From contig CAXGUD010000012.1 of the NCBI GenBank assembly GCA_964012805.1, positions 42,311 through 106,310 on the forward strand: a DNA stretch of 64,000 bases, given 5' to 3'. Positions 16,739 through 63,299 of this stretch are shown here, piece by piece. Numbering within the stretch: position 1 is the first letter of the stretch; each line of letters begins with the position of its first letter. The notes beneath the pieces were generated by a model, which was not told the origin of the DNA, did no database searches, and saw only the letters and a list, made by a program, of their open reading frames with translations. Origin of the DNA: an uncultured Bacteriovoracaceae bacterium (GTDB lineage: Bacteria; Bdellovibrionota; Bacteriovoracia; Bacteriovoracales; Bacteriovoracaceae). The position numbers were made by a program, and so were the translations under genes.

Positions 16739-18865
16739 ATGAATTTTAGATTTCTGTCGATTTTCCTTTCTATGATTTTAAGTACTAATCTCTTTTCTTT
16801 TCCTTCCTATATGAAAAGGGATGTCGATGCCTTTTTAAAGCTTAAAAAGCAAATTAAAAAGGAAGTTAAGAAATTTAACAAGGAAACAAAATTCACCATA
16901 AAGTCATCAATGTTTGGCGGCTCAAGTAAGAAATATAATTTTTATCAAAATGTGGTACCAAATTATTGCCAGTTTGGTATTGAACAACAGGTTCATGAAT
17001 CGAAAAACTCCATCTTTAGAACAAAAGATGGAAAAGGTATTGTAAACAGAAGCGGGCCTGTAGATATCGGTGATGACCTGGATATGTTCACCAAGGATTA
17101 TAATCCAAGAAAGAACTTGGGTTACTCAATAAGGTTTAATAATTATTTGGGCAAAACAAATCCTTTAACCCTTAATTATAAAAGTAAATCTGAAAGAGAT
17201 AAGGTCAAAGATGCACTGAATGTTGTTCAGAGGCTTTGTAGAGACAAGAAAAGAAGGCTTAGGAACCTAATTTCAGCTGGAGTTGATCCCGTGGAAGTAG
17301 GGGAACTTGGTAAGTTGAAAAAGGGTGAAAAGAGTCAAGGTTATAACAGGAACCCTTATGATCTCTCAAAATTTAGTGGGAAAGGCTTCAAAAATAATCC
17401 TGCTATGACTATTCCAACTTCAAGTAAGTTTGGTCCTTTCCCTTACAGAACAAGTGGACAGGATCTTGTGACAGTTGGAGCGCTTGGAGGAGAAAGATCA
17501 TTTATTAGAAGAATTGCCATTTCACAACAGGCCAAAAAATCAATTGATATTTTAAACTTACAATTTATGGCCGATGAAATCGGAATGGTCTTAGGAGAAA
17601 TTTTAATCAATAAAAGAAAGCAAGGAGTCAATGTAAGACTTTATATTGATGCTTTTTCGGTTTTTGTTGATGGAAGGGATGCGATCGCTCAAGGGAATTC
17701 TTATATTCTCTATAGAAATATGATGGCCCATGGAATTCCTGTTTATGGTTTCCAGTGTGATTCTAAGTGGAGACTCCTAAAGCAAGAATGGGACAATACC
17801 AAGAAAATTAAGGGGCGTTCCTGGATGCATAGGTTCCATGAGAAAATATGGATTGCTGATGGAGAAGTAGCAATTGTTGGAGGTGCCAATATTACCGCTT
17901 CTTACCACATGGTTTACCCCAATGGGCGTTTGAGATGGAGGGATATGGATGTCGAAATGACAGGAAGAAAAACAATTAAGGATTTGACCAATAGGATAGA
18001 TGAAAAGGTTAAGCTTTATAATAGAGACTTTCCTGATCCAACTAAAATGAAGTGTTTTAATAAATATCCAGTTGGTACAGTTAAGTGGAAAAACTTTGCT
18101 AAGAACGAAAGTAAAAAGTATATTCCTTTTGGGTCAGGTAAAATAAGTAAGGACCAAGACTTTGCCATGAAGTATGTCAAAAAATTAACGAAAGGAGATT
18201 TTAACCTTGAAGGTAAAAAGTGGAAATTGAGAAAGGTTAGGACAAAGGGCTCGAGAGTTGTTTTCTCGAGACCAAAGTTTGGAGAACTTTACCTTGAGCA
18301 GGTTTACATAGACCTGATCAATAAGTCTAAGTATGAAATCCTCTTAGAAAACTCTTATTTTATTCCCTCACAGCCACTTTTAGACGCCTTAATTAAGGCC
18401 TCTCAAAGAGGTGTAAAAATTAAAATTTTGACTAATGGTCCTGAAACAAACGAACCACCTATGGTCATGACTCCGCTAGCGAGGTTCTATTACAAGGACC
18501 TCATGGACGTAAATCAAGGGAATAAAAGGCATGAAGCAGAGATTTATGAGTGGAATGGTCGTTATAAAAACGGTAAAGATATCCATTTTGGAATGGTCCA
18601 CTCTAAGTTTGCTGTTTTCGATAGGCAAATTACACTTATTGGATCTTATAACTTTGATAATGTAAGTAGGGACTTTAATGAAGAGTTGGCAATTCTTTAT
18701 GATGGAACAGATTTGGCGCTTTTTATTGCTAAAAGGTTCTATGAATATGATTTGAATTACACGGAAAGGATTAAATACAAGGATGCATTAAAATATAAGA
18801 AGCCAAGGAATTTTGGTCAACAGATGATTTTAAAAATGCTTAGAAAGATGGAAAGTAGGATTTAG
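16739..18865 (+). CDS. Secreted phospholipase D superfamily protein (cardiolipin synthase-like, two HKD motifs)
   Basis: HEKIWIADG..AIVGGAN and HSKFAVFD...IGSYN; WRDMD; signal peptide; long uncharacterised N-terminal region. Confidence 0.9.
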   Translation: MNFRFLSIFLSMILSTNLFSFPSYMKRDVDAFLKLKKQIKKEVKKFNKETKFTIKSSMFGGSSKKYNFYQNVVPNYCQFGIEQQVHESKNSIFRTKDGKGIVNRSGPVDIGDDLDMFTKDYNPRKNLGYSIRFNNYLGKTNPLTLNYKSKSERDKVKDALNVVQRLCRDKKRRLRNLISAGVDPVEVGELGKLKKGEKSQGYNRNPYDLSKFSGKGFKNNPAMTIPTSSKFGPFPYRTSGQDLVTVGALGGERSFIRRIAISQQAKKSIDILNLQFMADEIGMVLGEILINKRKQGVNVRLYIDAFSVFVDGRDAIAQGNSYILYRNMMAHGIPVYGFQCDSKWRLLKQEWDNTKKIKGRSWMHRFHEKIWIADGEVAIVGGANITASYHMVYPNGRLRWRDMDVEMTGRKTIKDLTNRIDEKVKLYNRDFPDPTKMKCFNKYPVGTVKWKNFAKNESKKYIPFGSGKISKDQDFAMKYVKKLTKGDFNLEGKKWKLRKVRTKGSRVVFSRPKFGELYLEQVYIDLINKSKYEILLENSYFIPSQPLLDALIKASQRGVKIKILTNGPETNEPPMVMTPLARFYYKDLMDVNQGNKRHEAEIYEWNGRYKNGKDIHFGMVHSKFAVFDRQITLIGSYNFDNVSRDFNEELAILYDGTDLALFIAKRFYEYDLNYTERIKYKDALKYKKPRNFGQQMILKMLRKMESRI

Positions 18866-47816: not shown

Positions 47817-49244
47817 CTAATTGATGTAACGCTTCTTTTTAAATGCAATCCATGCCTTTTTGAACTTGTTATTTTTATAGATCCTGGCGTTTTCCCAACC
47901 ATTTTTAGGATGACTAAATTGAAATTGATAGCGCTCTTTTTTACAGGCTTCCCTTCCTTCTTTAAAAGTTCCCCGTCCTCTCGTAACAATCCAAAACCCT
48001 TCATTTTTTTCATCTTGGCAAGCAAAGGGAAGTTTTTCTTTGCAATCAGTTGCCACCCAACGACCATTTTGCGTAATTGCTGCACAATTTTTTCCCTGAC
48101 CCCATTTTTTAGGTTCTCCATCGGCCCATGTCCAGATAAAAGCTTTGGCGTGATCAACCGTTAACCAGTCAACTTCAAGACCTGGAATATTGCATTCAAT
48201 AGCCTCTTTCACAATAGAGGGAGTGATTTTACCCGTTTCCTTTTCGCCGTCGTAAAAACGGAGATATTTGGTGGCGTCCCAATGAATTGATTGCCAGTTA
48301 TCGGAGAGTCCATCTTCTCCATAAGTTGGGTCATGGGACCAAAGGACTTCTTCTATGCTTTCATCAGTGAAATGGCAGTGTTTTCCATCAAATTGCTTAA
48401 CTTTTGTTCTTTTTCCCCTTTTATTAAAGCTATAAGGAAAGGGGGCACCAATAATAAAAACTCTTTTTCCAGCTTTTCTAATTTGATTTATAGAAGGGTA
48501 GGGACCTCTCTCTTTATAAAGCCCTTCAGGCAAATCACTAGGTCTAAAGATCAGGTCTTTAAGGTGGTGTTTTAAAGGCGCTTCTAAAAGTTCAGTTTGT
48601 CCGTCACTTTGGTTTTGAATTTTTATGACAACCACTTCATTTTGATTTTCTTTTTTTCGTAACCAAATATTAAATTCCTCAATAATATTATAATAAAGCC
48701 GGTCAAATGGAGAGCATCCCAAGTGGCTATACTCACCGTGACAAAGGCGTATCCTTTTCCCATAGTAATGAGTGTCCAATTCAAAAACCCGTCCTCCTAA
48801 ATCAAGGAGGTCGGTCAGTGAGTATTTGTGATTAGGGAAAAGGTAACCGTCGTTTTTATTGTTAAAGGCATTATGGAGCCAAAGAACATTAACTTGATTA
48901 AGGGGTAAATCAGACTGAAGTTCTCTTTGAAAACGGATTGTTTTTGAGATCCAGGCGTGGGGTTTATTTTTAAGCTGATCCCTCTTTTTGGCCTTGCATA
49001 TTCCTTTGACTGAGCGGAGCCCTCTATCACATCCACCACTTCCTTGGAGCCAAAACTCTAATGTTATGGGAGTGCATTTCTTTTGGCCTTCTTGTCCACA
49101 AGACAAGTTTCCAAGACCTTTTTGATATTTTGCCACCGCCAAAGGTGTTGTTGTAAAGCTTGATAGTAAAAGGAACCAAAGAAAAAATACAGTTCTTGCT
49201 TTCATCATTCCTGCATATTTTGTAAGGGAGTAAGTCTTTTCCAT
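47817..49244 (-). CDS. Secreted PI-PLC-like phosphodiesterase with C-terminal C-type lectin-like domain
   Basis: HNAFN, SLTDLLDLGGRVFELDTH, LCHG; C-terminal W..GEP....NCA....GRW...DC....FAC pattern. Confidence 0.75.
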   Translation of the reverse strand: MEKTYSLTKYAGMMKARTVFFLWFLLLSSFTTTPLAVAKYQKGLGNLSCGQEGQKKCTPITLEFWLQGSGGCDRGLRSVKGICKAKKRDQLKNKPHAWISKTIRFQRELQSDLPLNQVNVLWLHNAFNNKNDGYLFPNHKYSLTDLLDLGGRVFELDTHYYGKRIRLCHGEYSHLGCSPFDRLYYNIIEEFNIWLRKKENQNEVVVIKIQNQSDGQTELLEAPLKHHLKDLIFRPSDLPEGLYKERGPYPSINQIRKAGKRVFIIGAPFPYSFNKRGKRTKVKQFDGKHCHFTDESIEEVLWSHDPTYGEDGLSDNWQSIHWDATKYLRFYDGEKETGKITPSIVKEAIECNIPGLEVDWLTVDHAKAFIWTWADGEPKKWGQGKNCAAITQNGRWVATDCKEKLPFACQDEKNEGFWIVTRGRGTFKEGREACKKERYQFQFSHPKNGWENARIYKNNKFKKAWIAFKKKRYIN

Positions 49245-51552: not shown

Positions 51553-51819
51553 TTATTCTAACTTTTTTGCTGTCCAATGAAATTCCACAAAAGGCTTAAT
51601 CTCAAAGGAGGCCAGGTAAGGTACTTCTACACCGACTAGAGGCCTGATTCTTAATTTTATCTTATGAAGGTCCCAAAAAGAGTTATAATCTTGCATAAAA
51701 GATTCTTCATTAGTTCCAAAAGATTCTATTTCTTGCTCTAACCATTGATTATAAGAAACCTTCTCTGCATAAACATTAAAAGCTATAAGAAAAAAGATAA
51801 TACCAAATATTTTTTTCAT
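51553..51819 (-). CDS. Small secreted protein, one amphipathic beta-hairpin unit
   Basis: Signal peptide ending VYA; WDLHKIKLRIRPLVGVEVPYLASFEIKPFVEFHW. Confidence 0.7.
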   Translation of the reverse strand: MKKIFGIIFFLIAFNVYAEKVSYNQWLEQEIESFGTNEESFMQDYNSFWDLHKIKLRIRPLVGVEVPYLASFEIKPFVEFHWTAKKLE

Positions 51820-51828
51820 TTTTTTCTC

Positions 51829-52992
51829 CTAATTAAAATAAAGCGCTATATGAGGAATTCCTGAAACTTTAACTGGGCCTAAAGATCCACCCATGGAAAA
51901 CTTAAATTGTGATTTAATTTTTTTGATTTTCCATTGACTTCTATGACTAACTTTTGAACCAAACCTTTTCATAAACTTATGAGAAAATTTAAAGGCCTTT
52001 TTAAGTCCTTTTTTAACTTTCCTCTTTTTTATTTTAAAAAAGTAACTTTTTCCAAGGCTTTTTTCAGTTCCGTTGGCCATGACAAGTATTTCACCGTCTA
52101 GGTTATTAGATTTTACAGTTTTGTTATAATCTTCTGTCCTTTTAAAAAAGACAGAAGGAACTGCATAACCGCCTAATTCAGCAAGACCTAGTTTTCCCTT
52201 AGCAGAAACTCCAAGACCAATTTCTACTCGGCTAAGAGAGAGACCTTTTTTTTCGTATTTTGGAATACTAGAAAATAATATGTCACCCATGTCTTCAAAA
52301 AAAGCCGTTAACTCATGATTTGAAGAAGCCTTCACCTTTTTGGTCAAGTCTTTTCTTTTCCACTCAAGTCGTAAACGTGTATCTCCACCGATTTTTATTA
52401 ATGGCCCAAAAACAATTTTACCCGTTGCTTTAATTCCCATTTCTAATCTTAATTTATTGGCCTTCCATCCGGAAAAATGCATTTGGGATAACGATTCACC
52501 TAGTTGGTGGAAGTTTTTCATTGCTTTCTCAAGCCCTTTAGAAAGAACCTTTCCATTTTTAACTTTCCCAGAGTTAACCATCTTTTTTACAATGAAATGA
52601 ACTTGTGAGTTGATAGATTCTTCAGTTGTCGACTCATCAAAGCTAATGACATTTTCTTTTATGGCCTTCTCTTGTTCTTTTCTTGTCCAGTCAACTTCAA
52701 GGACTTTGGTTCCACCCCAAGAATAAATCCCTAGCTTTCCAGAAAGACCTAAAGCGAGAGACGTTTGGAAGCCTGAAAATTTCCACGAAGAATTGTTTAT
52801 TGACTTTGTTTCTTTGAGGCTTAGAAATTGATGAGAGTCGACATAATTTGTTAAAAAACCGTCTATTGAAGATAGGTCATCTTCCATAATGGATTTTTCA
52901 TTACTATCTGAAAACCAATAAGAGCTAAGATGCCCCTCTTTTCCATGAAGATTTGTTGTGACTAATAGGAGTAAAATTAAATATCTGATCAT
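51829..52992 (-). CDS. Secreted protein with four amphipathic beta-hairpin repeats
   Basis: Signal peptide; four related units of about 36 aa. Confidence 0.75.
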   Translation of the reverse strand: MIRYLILLLLVTTNLHGKEGHLSSYWFSDSNEKSIMEDDLSSIDGFLTNYVDSHQFLSLKETKSINNSSWKFSGFQTSLALGLSGKLGIYSWGGTKVLEVDWTRKEQEKAIKENVISFDESTTEESINSQVHFIVKKMVNSGKVKNGKVLSKGLEKAMKNFHQLGESLSQMHFSGWKANKLRLEMGIKATGKIVFGPLIKIGGDTRLRLEWKRKDLTKKVKASSNHELTAFFEDMGDILFSSIPKYEKKGLSLSRVEIGLGVSAKGKLGLAELGGYAVPSVFFKRTEDYNKTVKSNNLDGEILVMANGTEKSLGKSYFFKIKKRKVKKGLKKAFKFSHKFMKRFGSKVSHRSQWKIKKIKSQFKFSMGGSLGPVKVSGIPHIALYFN

Positions 52993-53015
52993 TTTAGTAC
53001 CCTCTCTTTAAATAT

Positions 53016-53324
53016 TTATTTTTTTGAAAAATAGAGTTTAAAATAAGGTTCTGCCGTTGCGGTTATTAGACTTCCAATACCTAACTTCATTTTTATATAG
53101 GTTCCAACTGAAACTTTATAAAAAGAGAATTTACTTTTATCTAAAGATTCAAGTGTCGATTCGGAAAGAATAGAAATTGATTTTTTTAATTTTAAATCCC
53201 ATTCACTTTTTTTAAGACTAACTTCTTTTGGGTTTCCTTTACTATCCAAACCTATTAAAGGTAAAGATGAACTATTGGCGACTGAAATAAGAAAGAAATA
53301 GAGAAAAATTGCTTTTTTAATCAT
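53016..53324 (-). CDS. Small secreted protein, one amphipathic beta-hairpin unit
   Basis: Signal peptide; FSFYKVSVGTYIKMKLGIGSLITATAEPYFKLYFSK. Confidence 0.7.
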   Translation of the reverse strand: MIKKAIFLYFFLISVANSSSLPLIGLDSKGNPKEVSLKKSEWDLKLKKSISILSESTLESLDKSKFSFYKVSVGTYIKMKLGIGSLITATAEPYFKLYFSKK

Positions 53325-54583: not shown

Positions 54584-55342
54584 CTATAACAAATACTTTT
54601 GAACTTCCTTGAATTTTAACTTTTTAGCAAGGTGTAAAGCTGACACTCCTTTATTATCTTTAATCAATTTGTCAGCTCCAGATTCTAAAAGAAGTTTAAC
54701 AACGAAGGGACGGTTTTTTCTTACCGCATGAATAAGGGCAGTCCTTCCCTTGTTGTCTTTAATATTTACGAGGGCCTTATTCAAAATGAGTTGTCTCAAA
54801 ATCTTTTTATGACCTTTAACTGAGGCCAACGTTAGGGCACTAACACCTTGAATATTTTTAAGGTTTACTTTGGCGCTCGCCTTTAAAAGTAATTTAACAA
54901 CTTCTTTATGGCCTTTTAATGAAGCAACCATGAGGGGTGTCCATTGCCATTTATCTTTTGAGTTAACATCCGCTTTGTAATTTAAAAGAGTTGAAACAAC
55001 TTCCTTATTTCCTTTTTGGGAGGCGAGTGACAAAGAAGTTTGGCCTAAGGGAGTAGCTGATTCAGTATTGGCCCCATTTTTAAGAAGAAATAAGGCAACT
55101 TTAGGTCTATCAAATAGGGCCGCATGCATAAGAGGGCTTTTCCCAAGGTGATCAAAGCTATTTATTTTCTTCTTATTATTATTAAAAAAACTTTTAATAT
55201 CTTTAAGAGAGCCCCTTTTTATTATCTCCGAAATTGATTTTGCTTTTAGATCTTTTGTTTCCTTTGCAAAAGAAAAACTGATGAATAAATTAAAAATAAA
55301 AAGAAGGGGAAGCCCCTTCTTAATTGTTTTATAGAAAGTCAT
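54584..55342 (-). CDS. Exported ankyrin-repeat protein
   Basis: About 6 ankyrin repeats (GKSPLMHAA, GQTSLSLAS, TPLMVAS, GVSALTLAS, GRTALIHAV, GVSALHLA); signal peptide from ATG 55342, overlapping the upstream stop. Confidence 0.9.
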   Translation of the reverse strand: MTFYKTIKKGLPLLFIFNLFISFSFAKETKDLKAKSISEIIKRGSLKDIKSFFNNNKKKINSFDHLGKSPLMHAALFDRPKVALFLLKNGANTESATPLGQTSLSLASQKGNKEVVSTLLNYKADVNSKDKWQWTPLMVASLKGHKEVVKLLLKASAKVNLKNIQGVSALTLASVKGHKKILRQLILNKALVNIKDNKGRTALIHAVRKNRPFVVKLLLESGADKLIKDNKGVSALHLAKKLKFKEVQKYLL

Positions 55343-56651
55343 TGAATTCCTCCTCAAGAGAATTTTGACGGAACTGCTGGATATAATCAATGAGCTGAAT
55401 ATAAGTATCAGGCCTTTTGGCAGGACAAACGGCTAATTTGTCATAAGGAAAAGAGGCGCCTTTGCTTTTTGTTTTAAAAAGACAAGAAAAGGCCCTTCTT
55501 AGGTGTACTTCTTGATCATTTGGAATGTAGGGAAGAAGGCATGATTTTTTTATATTTCCAGAGTCTCTTGGGACGCAAAGATGCTCTTTTTTATCGAGCT
55601 TTTCTTTGAACGTCGGCTCCTTCATGTCAGTTGATTGACAGTCCCACTTAGAGTTTGCTTTGGCCACTCTTAGAAAAGGAACTCTAATATCAGTGTTTTT
55701 TGTTTTCATTTGGCAAATATCAACAACATCTTCTTCAATAGTGGGAAGAACAATGAGGGTAGGGGTACAAAAGTAGGCATCTTTGAAAACTTCGTTACAC
55801 TGAGTCATCAAAGGTTGTGGTATTTTAACAGGATCGTATTTGGTTTTTTTATCTATCCAATAAAAAAGACCCTTAATATCTGACCTTAAATCATCATCCA
55901 GACTTGTTCTGATTGTTGTATCTCTTCTTTTCTTCTTTTCCTTTTTAAGTTTCCTTCTTTCCCTCCAGGAAAGCTTTTCTTTAGGCCTTTCTTCCCCTTC
56001 ACTGGCCAATGGATTTAATTCAACTTTAGTTTCTATTTTTTCCAAATAATAATCAAAAAAAACAGATGATACCTCACATTTAGACTGTATATTGTATAGA
56101 AGATGGGTTCTACCTTCCTTTTTTGTATTGGAAAGAACACAGATCAAATAATGAGGTTTTTTCTCATTTAATTGATTGAGGGTTAATTTTCCTTTAAAAC
56201 TAGGGCTTCTTAAAATAAAGGAACCCTTTCCCCAAGCATGATTGTAAATGCACTCCCTTACATTTTCAGATTCTTTGCAATAGGGGTGGTCCGTCCAAAT
56301 ATGAGGTCTTGCCAGATTGGGGTCTGGAGGAGTTGTGCCTAGAGGAGAGCTTGGGTCTACTTCTTCTGTGCTTTCTAAAACAAAATTATTTTTACCGCCA
56401 TGGCAGTATCTATTGATAAAGTTTTGGGTATTAAGGACAGTTTTTTTTAAAATTTTATTTTTTAAGGTGTCTTCTTTTAGGTCATAAAGATAATCCTCCA
56501 GCTTAGAACATTGGTTTTCTCTAGCGTCACTTTTTGTCGACGCAATCTTAGTTATTGAGTTAAGAATTTCTTTGTAAATAAGGCCTGTATTTCCAAAGGC
56601 CTGGCAATTAAAAATAATTACGGTTAGCCCCGTAAAAAAAATCTTTTTCAT
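55329..56651 (-). CDS. Secreted Cys-rich hypothetical protein
   Basis: Signal peptide; many Cys; basic Lys/Arg stretch. Confidence 0.75.
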   Translation of the reverse strand: MKKIFFTGLTVIIFNCQAFGNTGLIYKEILNSITKIASTKSDARENQCSKLEDYLYDLKEDTLKNKILKKTVLNTQNFINRYCHGGKNNFVLESTEEVDPSSPLGTTPPDPNLARPHIWTDHPYCKESENVRECIYNHAWGKGSFILRSPSFKGKLTLNQLNEKKPHYLICVLSNTKKEGRTHLLYNIQSKCEVSSVFFDYYLEKIETKVELNPLASEGEERPKEKLSWRERRKLKKEKKKRRDTTIRTSLDDDLRSDIKGLFYWIDKKTKYDPVKIPQPLMTQCNEVFKDAYFCTPTLIVLPTIEEDVVDICQMKTKNTDIRVPFLRVAKANSKWDCQSTDMKEPTFKEKLDKKEHLCVPRDSGNIKKSCLLPYIPNDQEVHLRRAFSCLFKTKSKGASFPYDKLAVCPAKRPDTYIQLIDYIQQFRQNSLEEEFNDFL

Positions 56652-56671
56652 GTTTTCCCCCGATAATTTAA

Positions 56672-57379
56672 TTAATTTCTTCTACTTTTTTTAATACAAA
56701 ACTTTGGAGAAGGGTCTTGGCAATACCTTTCAACCTTCCCCCATTTAAACAAAAATTTAAGGTAAACTTCTTTTTTGTTAATTGTGTCTTCTCTAGAACC
56801 GCTTATTTCAACCTCAGTTTCAGTCACGGCACCCCCAGAACCAGAGTTAGGGAAAACGTCAGTATCCTCTATGTCAATTGGGTCGAAAAAAAAGTCACTG
56901 ACTGTGTTAAAGGCTTTCCAATGGAAACCGAAAGAAAATTTCCCATCCCATCTATCAAAATTTCCACAAGTTCTTTCAAAGTAGCAAATTTCTTTTTCAT
57001 TTGTTTCCATGAAGTGCAAAACAGACATTGAAGGAATATATTTCCCCCCACCCATACATGAAATAACGGCGCTTAACTCCCTATCATAGGTTATATTAGG
57101 ATTTTCTTTAACAGGTTCAGGGAATTTCCCGTCAGCTATACCGGTAAGAATTTTAGGATAAGTCCCACCAGGTCTGTCTTGAAAAACTATATGAACATCA
57201 ACACATGACTTTGCGACATGCAATCTAAAATCCCGCTCTGAGTAACCAGCTCCTTTTCCATGGCCTGGTTGAGGCTTTGATGAACTTTGAGTGTATCCCG
57301 AGATTGGTACTAAAATAAGCGAAATAAGTATAATTTTATAAAACCTTTTAAGGATTGAATTATTTTTCATTTTCTTCAT
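56672..57379 (-). CDS. Secreted Cys-containing hypothetical protein, paralog of the 57981 scaffold
   Basis: Signal peptide after a GAGGAGG RBS (start 57379 or 57370); shares REL..ISC.GG, C...R.CGN...W.G..S.G..W and RYC..P...FC with 57981-58913. Confidence 0.75.
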   Translation of the reverse strand: MKKMKNNSILKRFYKIILISLILVPISGYTQSSSKPQPGHGKGAGYSERDFRLHVAKSCVDVHIVFQDRPGGTYPKILTGIADGKFPEPVKENPNITYDRELSAVISCMGGGKYIPSMSVLHFMETNEKEICYFERTCGNFDRWDGKFSFGFHWKAFNTVSDFFFDPIDIEDTDVFPNSGSGGAVTETEVEISGSREDTINKKEVYLKFLFKWGKVERYCQDPSPKFCIKKSRRN

Positions 57380-57950
57380 TTTCCTCCTCAATATCTTTAC
57401 AGCGTACTTCAATTTCACTATGCCTTGTCGATACCCAAAGTTTTAAGAGAACATATCCCGCAGGAATTGGGGCCCCATTAATTGAAACTTTCAAATCAGA
57501 ATGGTCTTGAGAGCAAAAACGCCTATGACATTTGAGAGCTTTTAGGGGAATATCTTCATCTGAAGCAACTTTTGGTTCCTTTTCAACTTCATCACTTGAT
57601 GTGTCCTCATTATTATTTTCATAATGAATTTGCCCATTTTCCAATTGGAGGATGTCTTTTTTGCCATTTATTTTTTGTTGAACGATAATTTTGTCTTTAT
57701 CTTCATTTTCTCTTGCTTCCATTTCACAAACTTCTACAATTTTGAGTGAAGCATTCGTAAACCAACCGGGCATTTTTCTATGGGTAATTTGAATGGGAAA
57801 TTTATCATCCTGATTAGCACAAACCATGGTGGGAGCAGGAGCTCCTGAAAAGCGAACAGCACAGTTTATATGGTCTTTTGAGTAAAGAGGGGAGGTTAAA
57901 AAACCTCCCAAAGTGACAAAAAAGACCATTTTTTTGATTGAACTTATCAT
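57360..57950 (-). CDS. Secreted hypothetical protein (6 Cys)
   Basis: Signal peptide; stop overlaps the next gene's start. Confidence 0.7.
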   Translation of the reverse strand: MISSIKKMVFFVTLGGFLTSPLYSKDHINCAVRFSGAPAPTMVCANQDDKFPIQITHRKMPGWFTNASLKIVEVCEMEARENEDKDKIIVQQKINGKKDILQLENGQIHYENNNEDTSSDEVEKEPKVASDEDIPLKALKCHRRFCSQDHSDLKVSINGAPIPAGYVLLKLWVSTRHSEIEVRCKDIEEENEENEK

Positions 57951-57980
57951 AATTTTGCCTTTTTAAATTTTATTGGTCTT

Positions 57981-58913
57981 TTAGTAGCAGAATTCGTTTT
58001 CAGGTTCTGTACAATACCTTCTTATATTTTCGTAAGTTGTGTCCCAGTTGGCATAAAGTCTAATTTGGTTATAGGCCGTATTTGAGAGTCCTGTATTTAC
58101 TGTATTAGCTGCATCAACTCCGAAAGATCCTGGTGCTCCTGCTCCTCCGGCACCTCCATTTCCAGCACTGACATTAACACCAGCTTCATTACAATCCATA
58201 AGTGCTGTGTTATTTGTATTCCCTGTAAAATCTCCGAGGCCGTCTCCACCAGGCCCAGCTTGACAGATAAATTTAATATCAGGACTAAAGATATCCGTTT
58301 TTGAGGTTGAGATATAACCTTGAGACTCTAAATGATCGGTGTATTCTTTCCATTCTGAATTAGATAAGTAGTTTTTAGGATAGCAGTTGATGTCACCAGA
58401 AGAGACAGAGCCGCCTTTCCCAAATGTTGCAACTGAGGCATGGCTGCTATTCACACAAACTTTGTTGCTGCTATTATTAATTGTGGAAGTAACAGAACCA
58501 CCATTTATGTCTCCACCATCTCCGCCATCCCCACCTTCTGTGGCATTAGCGAGTTTAATATAATTATTTTTCAATTTCGTATTGTTTAAAAAGTCTGTAA
58601 TGGAATGGCCCATAGACCATACAGCACCAATGCTAAGGCCGCCTCTCCAGATTTTTGCATTTCCACATACCCTTGTGCTTTGGCAAAGTTTTCTTTCACC
58701 ATGAACGGTTTTCCATTCAAACATGTGGACAGTTGTCGCTTCAGGGTGATGAAAGCTTCCACCGTGGCAATTTAGAAATGATGTGATTTCTCTTGCATTA
58801 TCTCCGCCTTTTGGGTCTTTCATTTTTAAAATGGTATCCTTGCAGACGGCCATTAAGTTTGAAGAAAGTAAAAGAGCACTGCCAATAGGTGCTAATTTTT
58901 TAAAAAAGTTCAT
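57981..58913 (-). CDS. Secreted Cys/Gly-rich hypothetical protein (56672-type scaffold with inserted 59031-type module)
   Basis: Signal peptide ending LMA; GGDGGDGGD and GNGGAGGAG stretches; 4-Cys module. Confidence 0.8.
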   Translation of the reverse strand: MNFFKKLAPIGSALLLSSNLMAVCKDTILKMKDPKGGDNAREITSFLNCHGGSFHHPEATTVHMFEWKTVHGERKLCQSTRVCGNAKIWRGGLSIGAVWSMGHSITDFLNNTKLKNNYIKLANATEGGDGGDGGDINGGSVTSTINNSSNKVCVNSSHASVATFGKGGSVSSGDINCYPKNYLSNSEWKEYTDHLESQGYISTSKTDIFSPDIKFICQAGPGGDGLGDFTGNTNNTALMDCNEAGVNVSAGNGGAGGAGAPGSFGVDAANTVNTGLSNTAYNQIRLYANWDTTYENIRRYCTEPENEFCY

Positions 58914-58981
58914 AGATTCCCCCCTTTTTTTGGAAAAAAGTATTTTTAATAATTTATTGTTTGGAAGATTTTAAATTTTGA

Positions 58982-59009
58982 AGGGAAGAGAGTCTGACCT
59001 CTCTCCCCT
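58982..59009 (-). promoter_or_regulatory. Intercistronic stem-loop after the first gene of the operon
   Basis: Minus-strand RNA aggggagagag-gtcaga-ctctcttccct pairs fully with one G-U; no long U tail. Confidence 0.65.
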
Positions 59010-59030
59010 GAAGTCTAAAAATTAGTAATT

Positions 59031-59810
59031 TTAATTTTCGTCTTCTCCGTCATCCATTACATCAATATCACAAGTTTGAATTGCTGATGCACTAACATTT
59101 CCAGAGCCTGCACCAAAACCAGCTCCACCAGATCCGTTCAAGCAAAGGAAACGAACACTTGGGCTTGAAATATTTGTTCCTTGAAGATCAATATCATCAT
59201 CAGATGACATATAACCTTGAGCAATAAGGTTTAGGTCAGCATTTGAAAGGTGTGACTTTTGAAAACATTCTGTTCCGATGGAAGAGCCATTCCCACCAAC
59301 TCCATAAAGGTGTTTTACAGAAACGTGAGAATCATTAAGGCAATTATTTCTTGGCTCGTAATCATCTCTAAACACAGCACCATAATTAACTTCTTTACCG
59401 GTGTCGTGCTGATTACAAGTTTGTAAACTTAAAGCATTAATATTGGCCGAAGCAGAACCAAAACCAGCTCCACCAACACCGTTAGAGCAAACATATTCTG
59501 TGCTTGCATCTAAAATGTCATTTAAGCTATTTTCAATATCATCATCGTGAGCAATCAAACCAAACTGTGTTAGAAGACTTCCAGAAAAAGACCTAAGTGA
59601 GGAAACGTGAACACATCTTTGTCCTAAAGCGTGACCATCTCCACCAATACCGCCTATGCTTTTAACATTAGCCTCAGTATCGTTAACACAATTATTGTAT
59701 GGCTCGTAATCATCCATTCCTCCACGGTGGCCACCGTATCCTCTTCCTAATGCAGAAGTAGCAACCGTTAAAGCAAGAACAGCCATTGAAGTTTTTTTTA
59801 AGTAATTCAT
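59031..59810 (-). CDS. Secreted protein with two tandem Cys/Gly-rich repeats of roughly 100 aa
   Basis: Signal peptide MNYLKKTSMAVLALTVATSALG (GGAG RBS); repeats begin DDYEPYNNC and DDYEPRNNC and end GGAGFG...QTC. Confidence 0.85.
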   Translation of the reverse strand: MNYLKKTSMAVLALTVATSALGRGYGGHRGGMDDYEPYNNCVNDTEANVKSIGGIGGDGHALGQRCVHVSSLRSFSGSLLTQFGLIAHDDDIENSLNDILDASTEYVCSNGVGGAGFGSASANINALSLQTCNQHDTGKEVNYGAVFRDDYEPRNNCLNDSHVSVKHLYGVGGNGSSIGTECFQKSHLSNADLNLIAQGYMSSDDDIDLQGTNISSPSVRFLCLNGSGGAGFGAGSGNVSASAIQTCDIDVMDDGEDEN

Positions 59811-60482: not shown

Positions 60483-61247
60483 ATGATTCTAAAAGGAATT
60501 TTATTTGTGAAAAATCGCTCTTTTATAATGCTATCTTTTCTTATTTGTTTAATATCTTGCGGTAAAGGACCTAACCGACCAACTTCTTCAATAAGTGCTC
60601 ATGATGCCAACAGGTTTGTCGAGCAACTTAATCATGACGCTTATGCTTTTGAATACTTCCATTTGGTAAAGCCTCAAACAAATGAATATGGTGGTTGGAT
60701 AGTCGTTGACTATTATAAAGAAGGTAATTTTTCAAAATCTTATGCGGTTAATGTTGATTGGTTTGAAAAAAGCAATTATCCGACGAGCTTAGGCTATTAT
60801 GAATGGTGGAAAGATTCATCTATAGCAGTTAAATATAATCAAAGGGATGGTTTATATTATGGAGGAGGGTACAAATTTGAAGAAAAAGCGACCTCGATAA
60901 AAGATTTAGAAAAAATTGCCAATAAAATAGAGATAATAAACCGATATAAAATCTCCAACCACCTTGCAAATAGGTATGGATTAAGCGAAGAAAGATCCCT
61001 TAAAATTGCCAAATTGGTCCAAAATTGGAAAAAAGTTTCCAAAAAAAGACAAATGAGTGAAGCAGACAGCAAAAGGTTTTTTGAAAAAGTTGTTGGAGTC
61101 TCTTTTGTATCAACTATAGAAGCCTTAAACTTAAAGTCTCAGGGTGATCAAACATCTTTTGACGCTCTTATTGAAAAGGCAAGTGAATACAATGGGGTAG
61201 ACCCAGAGAGTTTTAAAGAAATTTTGGATAAATTTATGGTCTATTAA
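60483..61247 (+). CDS. Hypothetical lipoprotein
   Basis: Lipobox-like LISC; helical C-terminus YGLSEERSLKIAKL. Confidence 0.7.
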   Translation: MILKGILFVKNRSFIMLSFLICLISCGKGPNRPTSSISAHDANRFVEQLNHDAYAFEYFHLVKPQTNEYGGWIVVDYYKEGNFSKSYAVNVDWFEKSNYPTSLGYYEWWKDSSIAVKYNQRDGLYYGGGYKFEEKATSIKDLEKIANKIEIINRYKISNHLANRYGLSEERSLKIAKLVQNWKKVSKKRQMSEADSKRFFEKVVGVSFVSTIEALNLKSQGDQTSFDALIEKASEYNGVDPESFKEILDKFMVY

Positions 61248-61289
61248 AAGCTTAAGGACTTTAAAAGATCAAATAAGTCCTTTGCAAAA

Positions 61290-63299
61290 CTATTTACCTT
61301 TCCTTTTTAGGCCTTCAAAAGAAACGCTTTTGGAATTTATAAGGACTAGGTTGCCTTTGGGTATTCTTTCCCCCTCCCATTGTACCACAAGGTGAATATC
61401 ACCTTTTTGGATTAAGTTTAAAATTTCGTGGAAGGTAAAGTTATTTTGAGAGAGTCCTTTTCCAAAATCAGCAAAATTTTTGGAAAAGGCCTTAAAGTTA
61501 TTGTTTTTAATATTTTTATCCATTTTTTTAAGGGATTTGAAAGCTAGATCCATCCCTTTTTTGATCCCACTTATTATTTTTTTCTTACAAATGGCCCTTC
61601 CAAGGACGCTTTTTGCGCCTACTTTGACGACCGTACATATTTCCCACCTTTTATTTTCTTTGTTTTCAAACCAGGCCTTTGCCTTTTTAAGGGGTCCATC
61701 AACCCACTTTTCGCCCTCTTTATTTGCCTTTGTAATTAATTCCTCAATCGCTTTCATTCCGATCATTAGGTCAGCTGAAATTTTTGTGGGCCCTAAAACT
61801 TTTCTTCCTTTTTTAGAGTTTAAAGGAATCTTTTTACCTCTAATTAAAACGGCTTCACCTCTAAAGCTTAAGTATTTTCTGACATTAACGGCCGCTTGTT
61901 TAATTTTTAAATCACTTAATTTTTCTTTAAATCCAATCCTTCTTATAAGGTTCATAATTTCTTCTTCTAACTCCCCTTCGAGCAATTTTTTAGAATGGTA
62001 TTGGTATTTATAATTGCCTGAAAAGCGGTTACTAAAGATCGAATCACCCTTTGGGGTATGTTTAAAAATTCTTTGGTGAGTTCCTGCAAACATGGCCAGC
62101 CTATAATTACTTCTTTTTAAAAGACCGAATGTTTCTCTTTCATCTTTGTAAACACCTAGGTTTGTTTTTACCGTAACGTTGGACCCTCCCATTTTAGTTT
62201 CCGTGACAACAAAGCTTTTGCCTTTTTTTGCCTTAAGGCTTACAAGACCTGGGAAAGCAAACCTAATTTTTCTCTCATGTCCAGAAACCTTAGACTTATA
62301 ATTCATAAGAGGGCGGACTGGTTTTACCATCATCCTTGTGGCAAATTTTCTTATTCCGTTTTGAGTTGAAGTAAAGGCCCTGACGGCCTTTACTTTAGCC
62401 GCAAGCTGTTGGGCGGGAATAATATTTCCCATCAAAAACTTTTTGTAGGCCTCAAGCCCTAGAGGACTCGCCAAGTTAAACTCAAAAAAAGTGCCTACCC
62501 CGACGCCATCAAATTTATTAATTTCACCTCTTAATTTAATAACAATCGCTTTGGCACCCGCATAAGCAATCAGCTTAAAAAGCTTCTGCTTGACGTACCT
62601 TGCCTGAACTGTTGAAGGGCCTGTTTTTTTCACATGACAGATCCAGGTCCCTTCACCCACAAAACCAACATTCACGCTTGCGCCGGCCCCGACTTTCCAA
62701 ATCTTAGCCGAAACTCCGGCCCCAATCATGAGTCCAAGACCTCCCTTAACTGAATAATTAAATGAATCGCCAATTTCATACTTTTTTAAGAGCTCGAGGT
62801 TGTAGGGAATCTTTAAAAAAGGAGGTAATTTTTTAATATCCTTGTACTTTTTAACAAAAATTTCCCCAACCATGCCAGCGCCAATTTCGGCAAAAACACC
62901 AACCTGAGGGCCAGCAGAAACCGGTAAAAGGTCAGTTCCTACTGTTATACCTCCTAATCCTCCTAGTGCATCGACAGGTAAAGTTATGTCTCTTACTTTA
63001 AAATATTTCGTCACTAAAAAGCCTGAACCATCGTTTGGGGGAGGAGCATTCTCTTCGTATTTAGCATCCACTTTAAAAGCTGAATCTTTGGAAAGGTTTA
63101 TAATCGTTTGTCCCTTTTCAATTTCAGCAATATAGGCAAGGGTTGTGAGAGTTGATTTGGGGCCTGTAAAGTCATCGGGAAGGGGAACGGTATGGGTGAC
63201 GTTACCTGAATTGTCGACAAGCATTCCATCGGGTATCCAGTCGTCTGCATTTCCACTAAAACTTAAAAAAATGAGCGTTATAATTAAAAAAGACTTCAT
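61290..63299 (-). CDS. Large secreted hypothetical protein, beta-rich and basic
   Basis: Signal peptide ending GNA; Gly-rich alternating beta-strands (GGLGLMIGAGVSAKIWKVGAGASVNVGF). Confidence 0.7.
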   Translation of the reverse strand: MKSFLIITLIFLSFSGNADDWIPDGMLVDNSGNVTHTVPLPDDFTGPKSTLTTLAYIAEIEKGQTIINLSKDSAFKVDAKYEENAPPPNDGSGFLVTKYFKVRDITLPVDALGGLGGITVGTDLLPVSAGPQVGVFAEIGAGMVGEIFVKKYKDIKKLPPFLKIPYNLELLKKYEIGDSFNYSVKGGLGLMIGAGVSAKIWKVGAGASVNVGFVGEGTWICHVKKTGPSTVQARYVKQKLFKLIAYAGAKAIVIKLRGEINKFDGVGVGTFFEFNLASPLGLEAYKKFLMGNIIPAQQLAAKVKAVRAFTSTQNGIRKFATRMMVKPVRPLMNYKSKVSGHERKIRFAFPGLVSLKAKKGKSFVVTETKMGGSNVTVKTNLGVYKDERETFGLLKRSNYRLAMFAGTHQRIFKHTPKGDSIFSNRFSGNYKYQYHSKKLLEGELEEEIMNLIRRIGFKEKLSDLKIKQAAVNVRKYLSFRGEAVLIRGKKIPLNSKKGRKVLGPTKISADLMIGMKAIEELITKANKEGEKWVDGPLKKAKAWFENKENKRWEICTVVKVGAKSVLGRAICKKKIISGIKKGMDLAFKSLKKMDKNIKNNNFKAFSKNFADFGKGLSQNNFTFHEILNLIQKGDIHLVVQWEGERIPKGNLVLINSKSVSFEGLKRKGK

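Follow-up and report, generated by a model that had tools for sequence, protein, structure and literature searches.

What could be built from a set of small, secreted and mostly cysteine-rich proteins that fall into no catalogued family? This question is raised by an operon in the genome of an uncultured Bacteriovoracaceae bacterium (GenBank assembly GCA_964012805.1), of which a stretch of 64,000 nucleotides (contig CAXGUD010000012.1, positions 42,311 to 106,310; "the window" in the following) was analysed. At window positions 54,584 to 59,810, six co-oriented minus-strand open reading frames (ORFs), g1 to g6, are closely spaced or overlap, with successive intervals of 117, 30, −11, 20, and −14 nucleotides (nt), followed by 270 nt before the next gene. 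An earlier account made from the sequence (the original prediction) had described this layout correctly and had proposed a fibre, tube or pore-forming apparatus in which g1 polymerises, g2 bridges the polymer to a g4-type base or pore, and g3, g5, and g6 assist or protect. The reading favoured here, with a probability of roughly 0.4, is that g2 to g5 would form a hetero-oligomeric outer-membrane β-barrel that displays a module contained in g2 and nucleates a fibre of g1.

Uncatalogued Secreted Proteins

The proteins g1 to g6 contain 8, 10, 6, 6, 15, and 0 cysteine residues, respectively. All six N-termini combine a basic N-region with a hydrophobic stretch and no later transmembrane helix is present, so that the predicted signal peptides are supported by a simple hydropathy heuristic (not SignalP). 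Searches of Pfam, NCBIfam and PDB sequences returned zero matches for g1–g5, and fold comparisons, as far as they reached, none above background, leaving g6 as the only one of the six genes in a catalogued family, as foreseen; known enzyme families, named earlier as evidence that would speak against a common apparatus, are not among the matches of g1–g5. In the window's genome, paralogues of g1–g5 were not found elsewhere. Mentions of these families were not found in the literature, with subscription journals and supplements (including possible family tables) outside the scope of that search. As a system of uncatalogued families it would be new, and the mechanism discussed below is a proposal.

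The S Domain Shared by g2 and g4

The genes g2 (57981..58913, minus strand; 310 amino acids (aa)) and g4 (56672..57370, alternative start 57379, minus strand; ~232 aa) have a six-Cys scaffold in common, termed the S domain. In local alignments scored against 500 shuffles, none of which reached any of the five module and scaffold scores, the N-terminal part of g2 matches g4 with z 21.3 and its C-terminal part the C-terminal part of g4 with z 8.2 (blastp E 2e-10). Into this scaffold a Gly-linked 4-Cys module of the g1 type is inserted (Cys153–Cys241; 58191..58457, minus strand), which aligns with the second g1 repeat (z 22.3) and the first (z 11.9; blastp g1/g2 E 1e-16). The proposed fusion of a g4-type scaffold with a g1-type module is thereby borne out. 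The insertion point lies between the amphipathic strands W89–W99 and L286–Y294, that is, at the tip of a hairpin.

With g2 as query, phmmer recovers 39 proteins at E ≤ 0.001, comprising long insert-bearing forms, insert-less forms of 133–217 aa and P0025, a distant g1; P0025, the g2-like P0015 and the g4-like P0037 are each located on a contig of 17,156 bp, probably one and the same. A maximum-likelihood tree was calculated from 77 S cores and 111 columns, after dropping three partial and three g1 rows and adding three rows from genome G653; given the few columns and several long branches, its deep branching order is not resolved. An A clade (26 rows, support 97/86) holds every insert-bearing protein and one short protein, and a B clade (28 rows, 97/94) contains, among others, each of the 17 S genes in the tree that stand behind g3; a C clade accounts for another 19 rows, and four proteins with long hairpins and no insert make up a long-branch group. 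Separate A and B clades, read as two ancient subtypes, are expected if the positions in a heteromer are fixed. The g2 of the window is of A type, g4 of B type with a short amphipathic-helix insert.

Several S genes deserve mention in their own right. An A-type S gene in L030 (G540) carries an in-frame TAA and that in L034 (G544) an apparent frameshift near its end, through sequencing error or decay. Protein P0014, on a single contig of 1.35 kb, joins the N-terminal half of g4 to unrelated fibre-like sequence and is probably an assembly chimera, a natural tip swap being the alternative. The C-type S gene of Silvanigrellaceae-like genomes (L074:4210-6772, L076, L078, L087) has, in conserved gene order, a pair of small secreted Cys proteins that are paralogues on one side and a Cys-rich gene on the other; the C-terminal part of the latter we take to be amidase/NlpC-like.

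An Invariant Core with g3 and g5

Between and behind the two S genes lie g3 (57360..57950, minus strand; 196 aa), a 6-Cys all-β protein, and g5 (55329..56651, minus strand; 440 aa), with 12 invariant Cys. In a search with a loose first pass over 131 genomes of the Oligoflexia/Silvanigrellales phylum, for which genome completeness is not given, the S, g3, and g5 profiles each match the identical 18 genomes, each of which has g3 immediately ahead of an S gene. Of 31 candidate stretches, 17 were confirmed when genome contigs were scanned, with source labels Silvanigrellaceae, Silvanigrellales, Pseudobacteriovorax, Oligoflexia or loose; each of these 17 genomes has 2–5 S genes, and g5 is present in every one. 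The invariant core is at least two S-domain genes together with g3 and g5. The original prediction of one conserved unit therefore stands for this core, not for all six genes, and the helper role that it gave to g3 and g5 does not fit their place in the core.

Conserved gene order, which had been suggested as a check, is found in distant lineages as the series S-g3-S-g5. Locus L040 reads g1-like gene, hairpin, A-type S, g3, B-type S, g5 (followed by what is presumably an RNA-methyltransferase-like gene), and L041 repeats this order except that the contig ends within g1. L039 has A-type S, g3, B-type S, g5, and a second locus in the same genome (L082) S, g3, S, g5, S; G653, which was part of none of the alignments, shows S, g3, S, g5 and a further, lone S. 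A compact four-gene version S-g3-S-g5 of ~2.5 kb occurs in L147. In G553 the operon is apparently split over two contigs, and B-type S and g5 are separated by an additional gene (L084:673-1680), which we assume to be of the FG-GAP-like repeat kind. In 13 related genomes the core is scattered into a lone A-type S, a g3–S(B) pair, a lone g5 and, mostly, a third S type. That the parts are retained even when unlinked speaks for a functional dependence among them and against mere hitch-hiking.

Within its own lineage, the operon is seldom found. The g3 profile matches 2 of 237 genomes of the window's family, both of the window's genus, and among 401 genomes sampled from the window's phylum the S profile matches only that of the window. 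A g4 search gave matches in 7 of the 237 genomes, five of which were dismissed on translation as unrelated enzymes. In G002 (68% complete), one of the two congeners, a contig of 2.2 kb with 73% nucleotide identity covers g2 in part, g3, g4, and the beginning of g5; a g4 protein at 73% identity bears the source label Bacteriovoracales. In the S tree, the window's g2 groups (100/99) with P0015, P0016, P0017, and the L040 and L041 proteins, the lineages that also have g1. This grouping, together with the rarity in its own phylum, suggests horizontal transfer of the operon.

Amphipathic Hairpins

The AlphaFold2 model of mature g2, based on an 80-row alignment, has a mean predicted local distance difference test (pLDDT) of 72 and depicts the S domain as a six-strand antiparallel meander. 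Confidence is mostly high for the cap (63–92 in 10-residue blocks) and the module (85–96, mature residues 131–220), the latter a compact α/β domain, and low for strand 5 (56–61) and the stretches that flank the insert (<50); to be sure of cap and module and unsure of the hairpin is as expected for an element that is ordered only in an oligomer. Fold comparisons gave no match above background, the module being covered only marginally.

Strand 5 follows, over 11 residues in 77 rows, the pattern Trp-x-Gly-x-Phe-x-Val-x-Gly/Ala-x-Trp, its two ends being aromatic in 93% and 96% of the rows; strand 6 alternates as well, with an aromatic end in 82% of the 77 rows. The alternation score is positive for strand 5 in 73 of 74 rows and for strand 6 in 73 of 76. 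The S domain has amphipathic strands that are long enough to span a membrane and terminate in aromatic residues, a necessary but not sufficient feature of a membrane barrel. The segment from strand 5 to strand 6 ranges from 17 to 270 residues, inserts being tolerated only at this tip, and four S paralogues have a continuously alternating hairpin of ~40 residues instead of an insert. Of the partners, g3 has a Cys-clamped alternating amphipathic hairpin with a Pro-rich hydrophobic turn (~residues 153–173); in g5, two loops are flanked by Cys, and the tip of one of them is hydrophobic. Homology among the S, g3, and g5 families is not detectable.

The Module Protein g1

The gene g1 (59031..59810, minus strand; 259 aa) encodes a signal peptide and two ~92-aa 4-Cys units (Cys41–132 and Cys157–247), which align with each other at z 29.8, as expected of the two modules described before. 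Homologues are P0008–P0010 (75–86% identity) and the distant two-module protein P0025 (37%). Between g1 and g2 lies a stem-loop with an 11-bp core stem (58982..59009, minus strand), likely a stabiliser or partial terminator. Its presence is confirmed, not its reputed strength, which is modest when taken alone (−26.2 kcal/mol for a 120-nt stretch, z −2.1, 7 of 200 shuffles equally good). In L040 and L041, too, a similar hairpin stands behind the g1-like gene, making three loci with that of the window. Upstream of g1, the ~670 nt that separate it from a divergent gene are extremely AT-rich and of low complexity (the 1-kb bin around them has a GC content of 0.24) and possibly regulatory.

In L040, a one-module relative of g1 is located before the g2 gene, an assignment that holds when tested by leave-out (E 0.006, 1984 ORFs searched). 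Each of its four Cys aligns with the g2 module of its own locus (z 6.5), and its scores against the modules of the window reach only z 1.9–3.1; for g1 and g2 of the window the value is z 22. That g1 in either locus resembles the module of its own g2 is consistent with cognate docking. When 3470 genes are ranked by codon bias, with 16 ribosomal genes as the reference, g1 is at position 105 (top 3%), g4 417, g5 1785, g2 2803, g3 2883, and g6 3215; presumed GroEL and EF-G genes rank 1 and 203. Together with the hairpins behind it, this rank lends g1 the traits of a major subunit, as had been proposed, and g1 is likely an abundant subunit. The genome (G000) also holds two paralogous 200-aa secreted proteins, which we assume to be DUF4360-like, at codon ranks 7 and 14 (C3:56653 and C10:102628). 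The g1 gene with its hairpin recurs in two distant loci, yet it is optional.

A Candidate Mosaic Barrel and Its Alternatives

In the proposed assembly, g2–g5 would be exported by the Sec route and acquire their disulfides, whereupon A-type S, g3, B-type S, and g5 would physically hetero-assemble, a step that we consider quite probable. The hairpins would then align into a membrane barrel, for which the odds appear slightly better than even. This barrel would sit in the producer's own outer membrane with its tip outward, and g1 would dock module on module and polymerise into an adhesive or structural appendage; in lineages without g1, only the g2 tip domain, or none, would be displayed. A more specific version—a mosaic β-barrel of four or five different small disulfide proteins with one hairpin each and a swappable tip (bare, a display domain, or a nucleator of a non-amyloid globular-module fibre), moved horizontally between Oligoflexia and Bacteriovoracales—is put forward tentatively and is somewhat doubtful as a whole.

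Several observations weigh against the barrel-and-fibre reading. The main difficulty is that a folded, disulfide-bonded tip domain of 90–170 residues would have to cross the membrane by a route that is not evident. The cap strands 1 and 2 alternate as strongly (3.7–4.0) as strands 5 and 6 (3.3 and 4.2); the B-type insert is an amphipathic helix, of exactly 26 residues in 19 rows, which could cover the hydrophobic face; and the predicted template modelling score of the g2 model is 0.41. For g1, the structure model reaches a pLDDT of only 30, and the codon index is noisy, two presumed GAPDH-like genes ranking 2569 and 2999. A stand-alone g1 module is found in only 2 of the 17 genomes, and in none of five genomes searched with their own insert profile, so that the membership once proposed for g1 holds only in an optional form; g1 could also have arisen several times over by duplication of the g2 insert, which would explain the within-locus likeness without docking. 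As for co-occurrence, 17 of the 18 positive genomes came to light via S and contributed to the profiles, 13 are closely related, and the independent lineages number about six.

An alternative is a soluble periplasmic or extracellular hetero-complex, in which the hydrophobic faces are buried between subunits or line a groove for lipid or ligand, the g1/g2 module serving as binding domain or as pore-free fibre subunit. We regard this as rather unlikely, given that a Gly-rich strand of 11 residues bounded by Trp on either side, the exposed hydrophobic turn of g3 and the 40-residue alternating hairpins, with polar and partly acidic opposite faces, are more in keeping with a barrel stem than with a globular core, and that all structural neighbours are within background. 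Should the barrel form in another cell, the core would be a released multi-component β-pore-forming weapon against prey or competitor membranes, with the g2/g1 module as receptor-binding or delivery part. The proteins are indeed secreted and disulfide-stabilised, their long amphipathic hairpins and hydrophobic Pro turns presumably resemble the stems of β-pore formers, their distribution is patchy and skips from phylum to phylum (2/237 in the window's family, 18/131 in the Oligoflexia/Silvanigrellales phylum), and the congener protein is labelled Bacteriovoracales, a predatory order. Such a weapon is nonetheless unlikely: the folded disulfide domain at the hairpin tip would need to enter the target, no sequence match to solved pore-formers was found for these proteins, nor a fold match above background, and a conserved immunity-like gene is not evident. 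The cultured Silvanigrella and Fluviispira, which may or may not carry the system, are treated as non-predatory in passages of PMC11656739.

A secreted enzyme with accessory proteins, or loosely related neighbours under one promoter, would suit the invariant Trp, Ser, and Pro of g5 besides its Cys and the lack of detectable homology among S, g3, and g5. The identical presence and absence of the three families, even when unlinked, makes this improbable, as do the zero matches to enzyme families, the invariant residues of S (only Cys, Pro, Gly, and Asn, no catalytic-type set) and the absence of any invariant His, Asp, Glu, Lys or Arg from the g5 alignment.

Comparison with Known Systems

Several small-subunit systems offer parallels to the proposed barrel. 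In multi-component β-pore-forming toxins (leukocidin/α-haemolysin, aerolysin/ETX-MTX2), secreted subunits contribute one amphipathic β-hairpin each and paralogues take fixed roles, and in oligomeric outer-membrane barrels of the MspA and CsgG type, small subunits donate hairpins to a shared barrel. The likeness to the toxins lies in secreted, hairpin-bearing subunits and paralogues with fixed roles. In contrast to them, the S subunits are ~140 aa long with three predicted disulfides and large folded tip inserts, two non-homologous partners are obligatory, and Pfam, PDB-sequence and significant fold matches are absent: the S, g3, and g5 alignments gave 0 Pfam or PDB-sequence matches, apart from two single-member ones (E 0.035–0.038) to unrelated families.

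Curli comprise the main subunit CsgA, the nucleator CsgB and the pore CsgG, and the Fap system FapC, FapB, and FapF, the last a trimeric 12-stranded barrel, according to passages of PMC5557850. The division of labour among a major subunit, a nucleator akin to it and a channel in the outer membrane, proposed here from sequence, would be similar. However, a sequence relation is absent, and the module is modelled as a disulfide-bonded globular α/β domain rather than an amyloid repeat of the Asn/Gln kind. The putative nucleator is built into a subunit that itself bears a hairpin, and three unrelated families, rather than one homo-oligomer, would supply the putative channel. As anticipated, CsgG, FapF, and usher homologues were not seen in family searches of the operon genes. 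No PF03783 (CsgG) match occurs in g1–g6 and no Pfam curlin match in g1, whose homologous module in g2 is modelled as globular with a helix. The FapF barrel and C39 peptidase families, as well as a gene with 12 transmembrane strands, are absent from the six genes and seven neighbours. For chaperone-usher pili, the usher query PF00577 is unmatched in the window's genome (100% complete) and pilin and chaperone family matches are absent. That genome's only CsgG-family match is weak (L165, G000:C41:28238-28501; 24.6 bits, E 3e-5) and lies on another contig, unlinked to the operon.

Within the same broad group, Bdellovibrio offers secreted surface or predation candidates in DUF4360 proteins and fibre adhesins termed MAT (PMC10769870 for the latter). 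One of the former, Bd1399 (DUF4360), is a disulfide-locked β-protein that pairs by sheet extension, according to PMC10792529. In g1–g5 no DUF4360 or fibre-family match is found, the Cys pattern differs, and the S domain is an open meander as opposed to the sandwich of Bd1399.

The Ankyrin Gene and the Surroundings of the Operon

The last gene, g6 (54584..55342, minus strand; 252 aa), encodes a secreted ankyrin-repeat protein with a Pfam Ank_2 match (E 9e-39, 132 bits against a curated cut-off of 27.3). The 19 locus stretches covered around homologues of g5 contain no ankyrin gene; g6 is a local addition outside the system, contrary to the assisting or protecting role assigned to it. A terminator-like hairpin with a T-run (55301..55321, minus strand) lies 8 nt past the g5 stop and overlaps the 5′ end of g6; it comes from a consensus scan only, in which 13 sites were seen against 7.1 ± 2.8 expected from shuffles.

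Further secreted genes surround the operon. At 51553-53324 (minus strand), three co-oriented genes (102, 387, and 88 aa) are alike in short β-hairpin motifs; the 387-aa product matches Pfam Pepco (PF24393, E 7.5e-7), and two stretches like this one are present in the congener G002 (C13, C135). At 60483-63299, a lipoprotein-like 254-aa gene forms a convergent pair with the gene of a 669-aa secreted β-rich protein, which has zero family matches; the 669-aa gene has several homologous stretches in G001 and G002. Judged from their translations, we take the secreted genes at 47817-49244 and 16739-18865 (both plus strand) to be lipid-enzyme-like, one resembling a phospholipase C X-domain with Cys-rich ends and one with two HKD-type motifs.

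Implications

The four uncatalogued families described here—the module, the S domain, g3, and g5—of which three are inherited identically even when scattered, point to an undescribed obligate machine of little-studied aquatic bacteria. If the barrel reading is true, this machine would represent a new construction of an outer-membrane channel from unlike subunits, as well as a new route to surface fibres, different from those of curli, Fap, and pili. A small pore whose tip accepts inserts of 17–270 residues would, furthermore, be of interest for nanopore and surface-display work.

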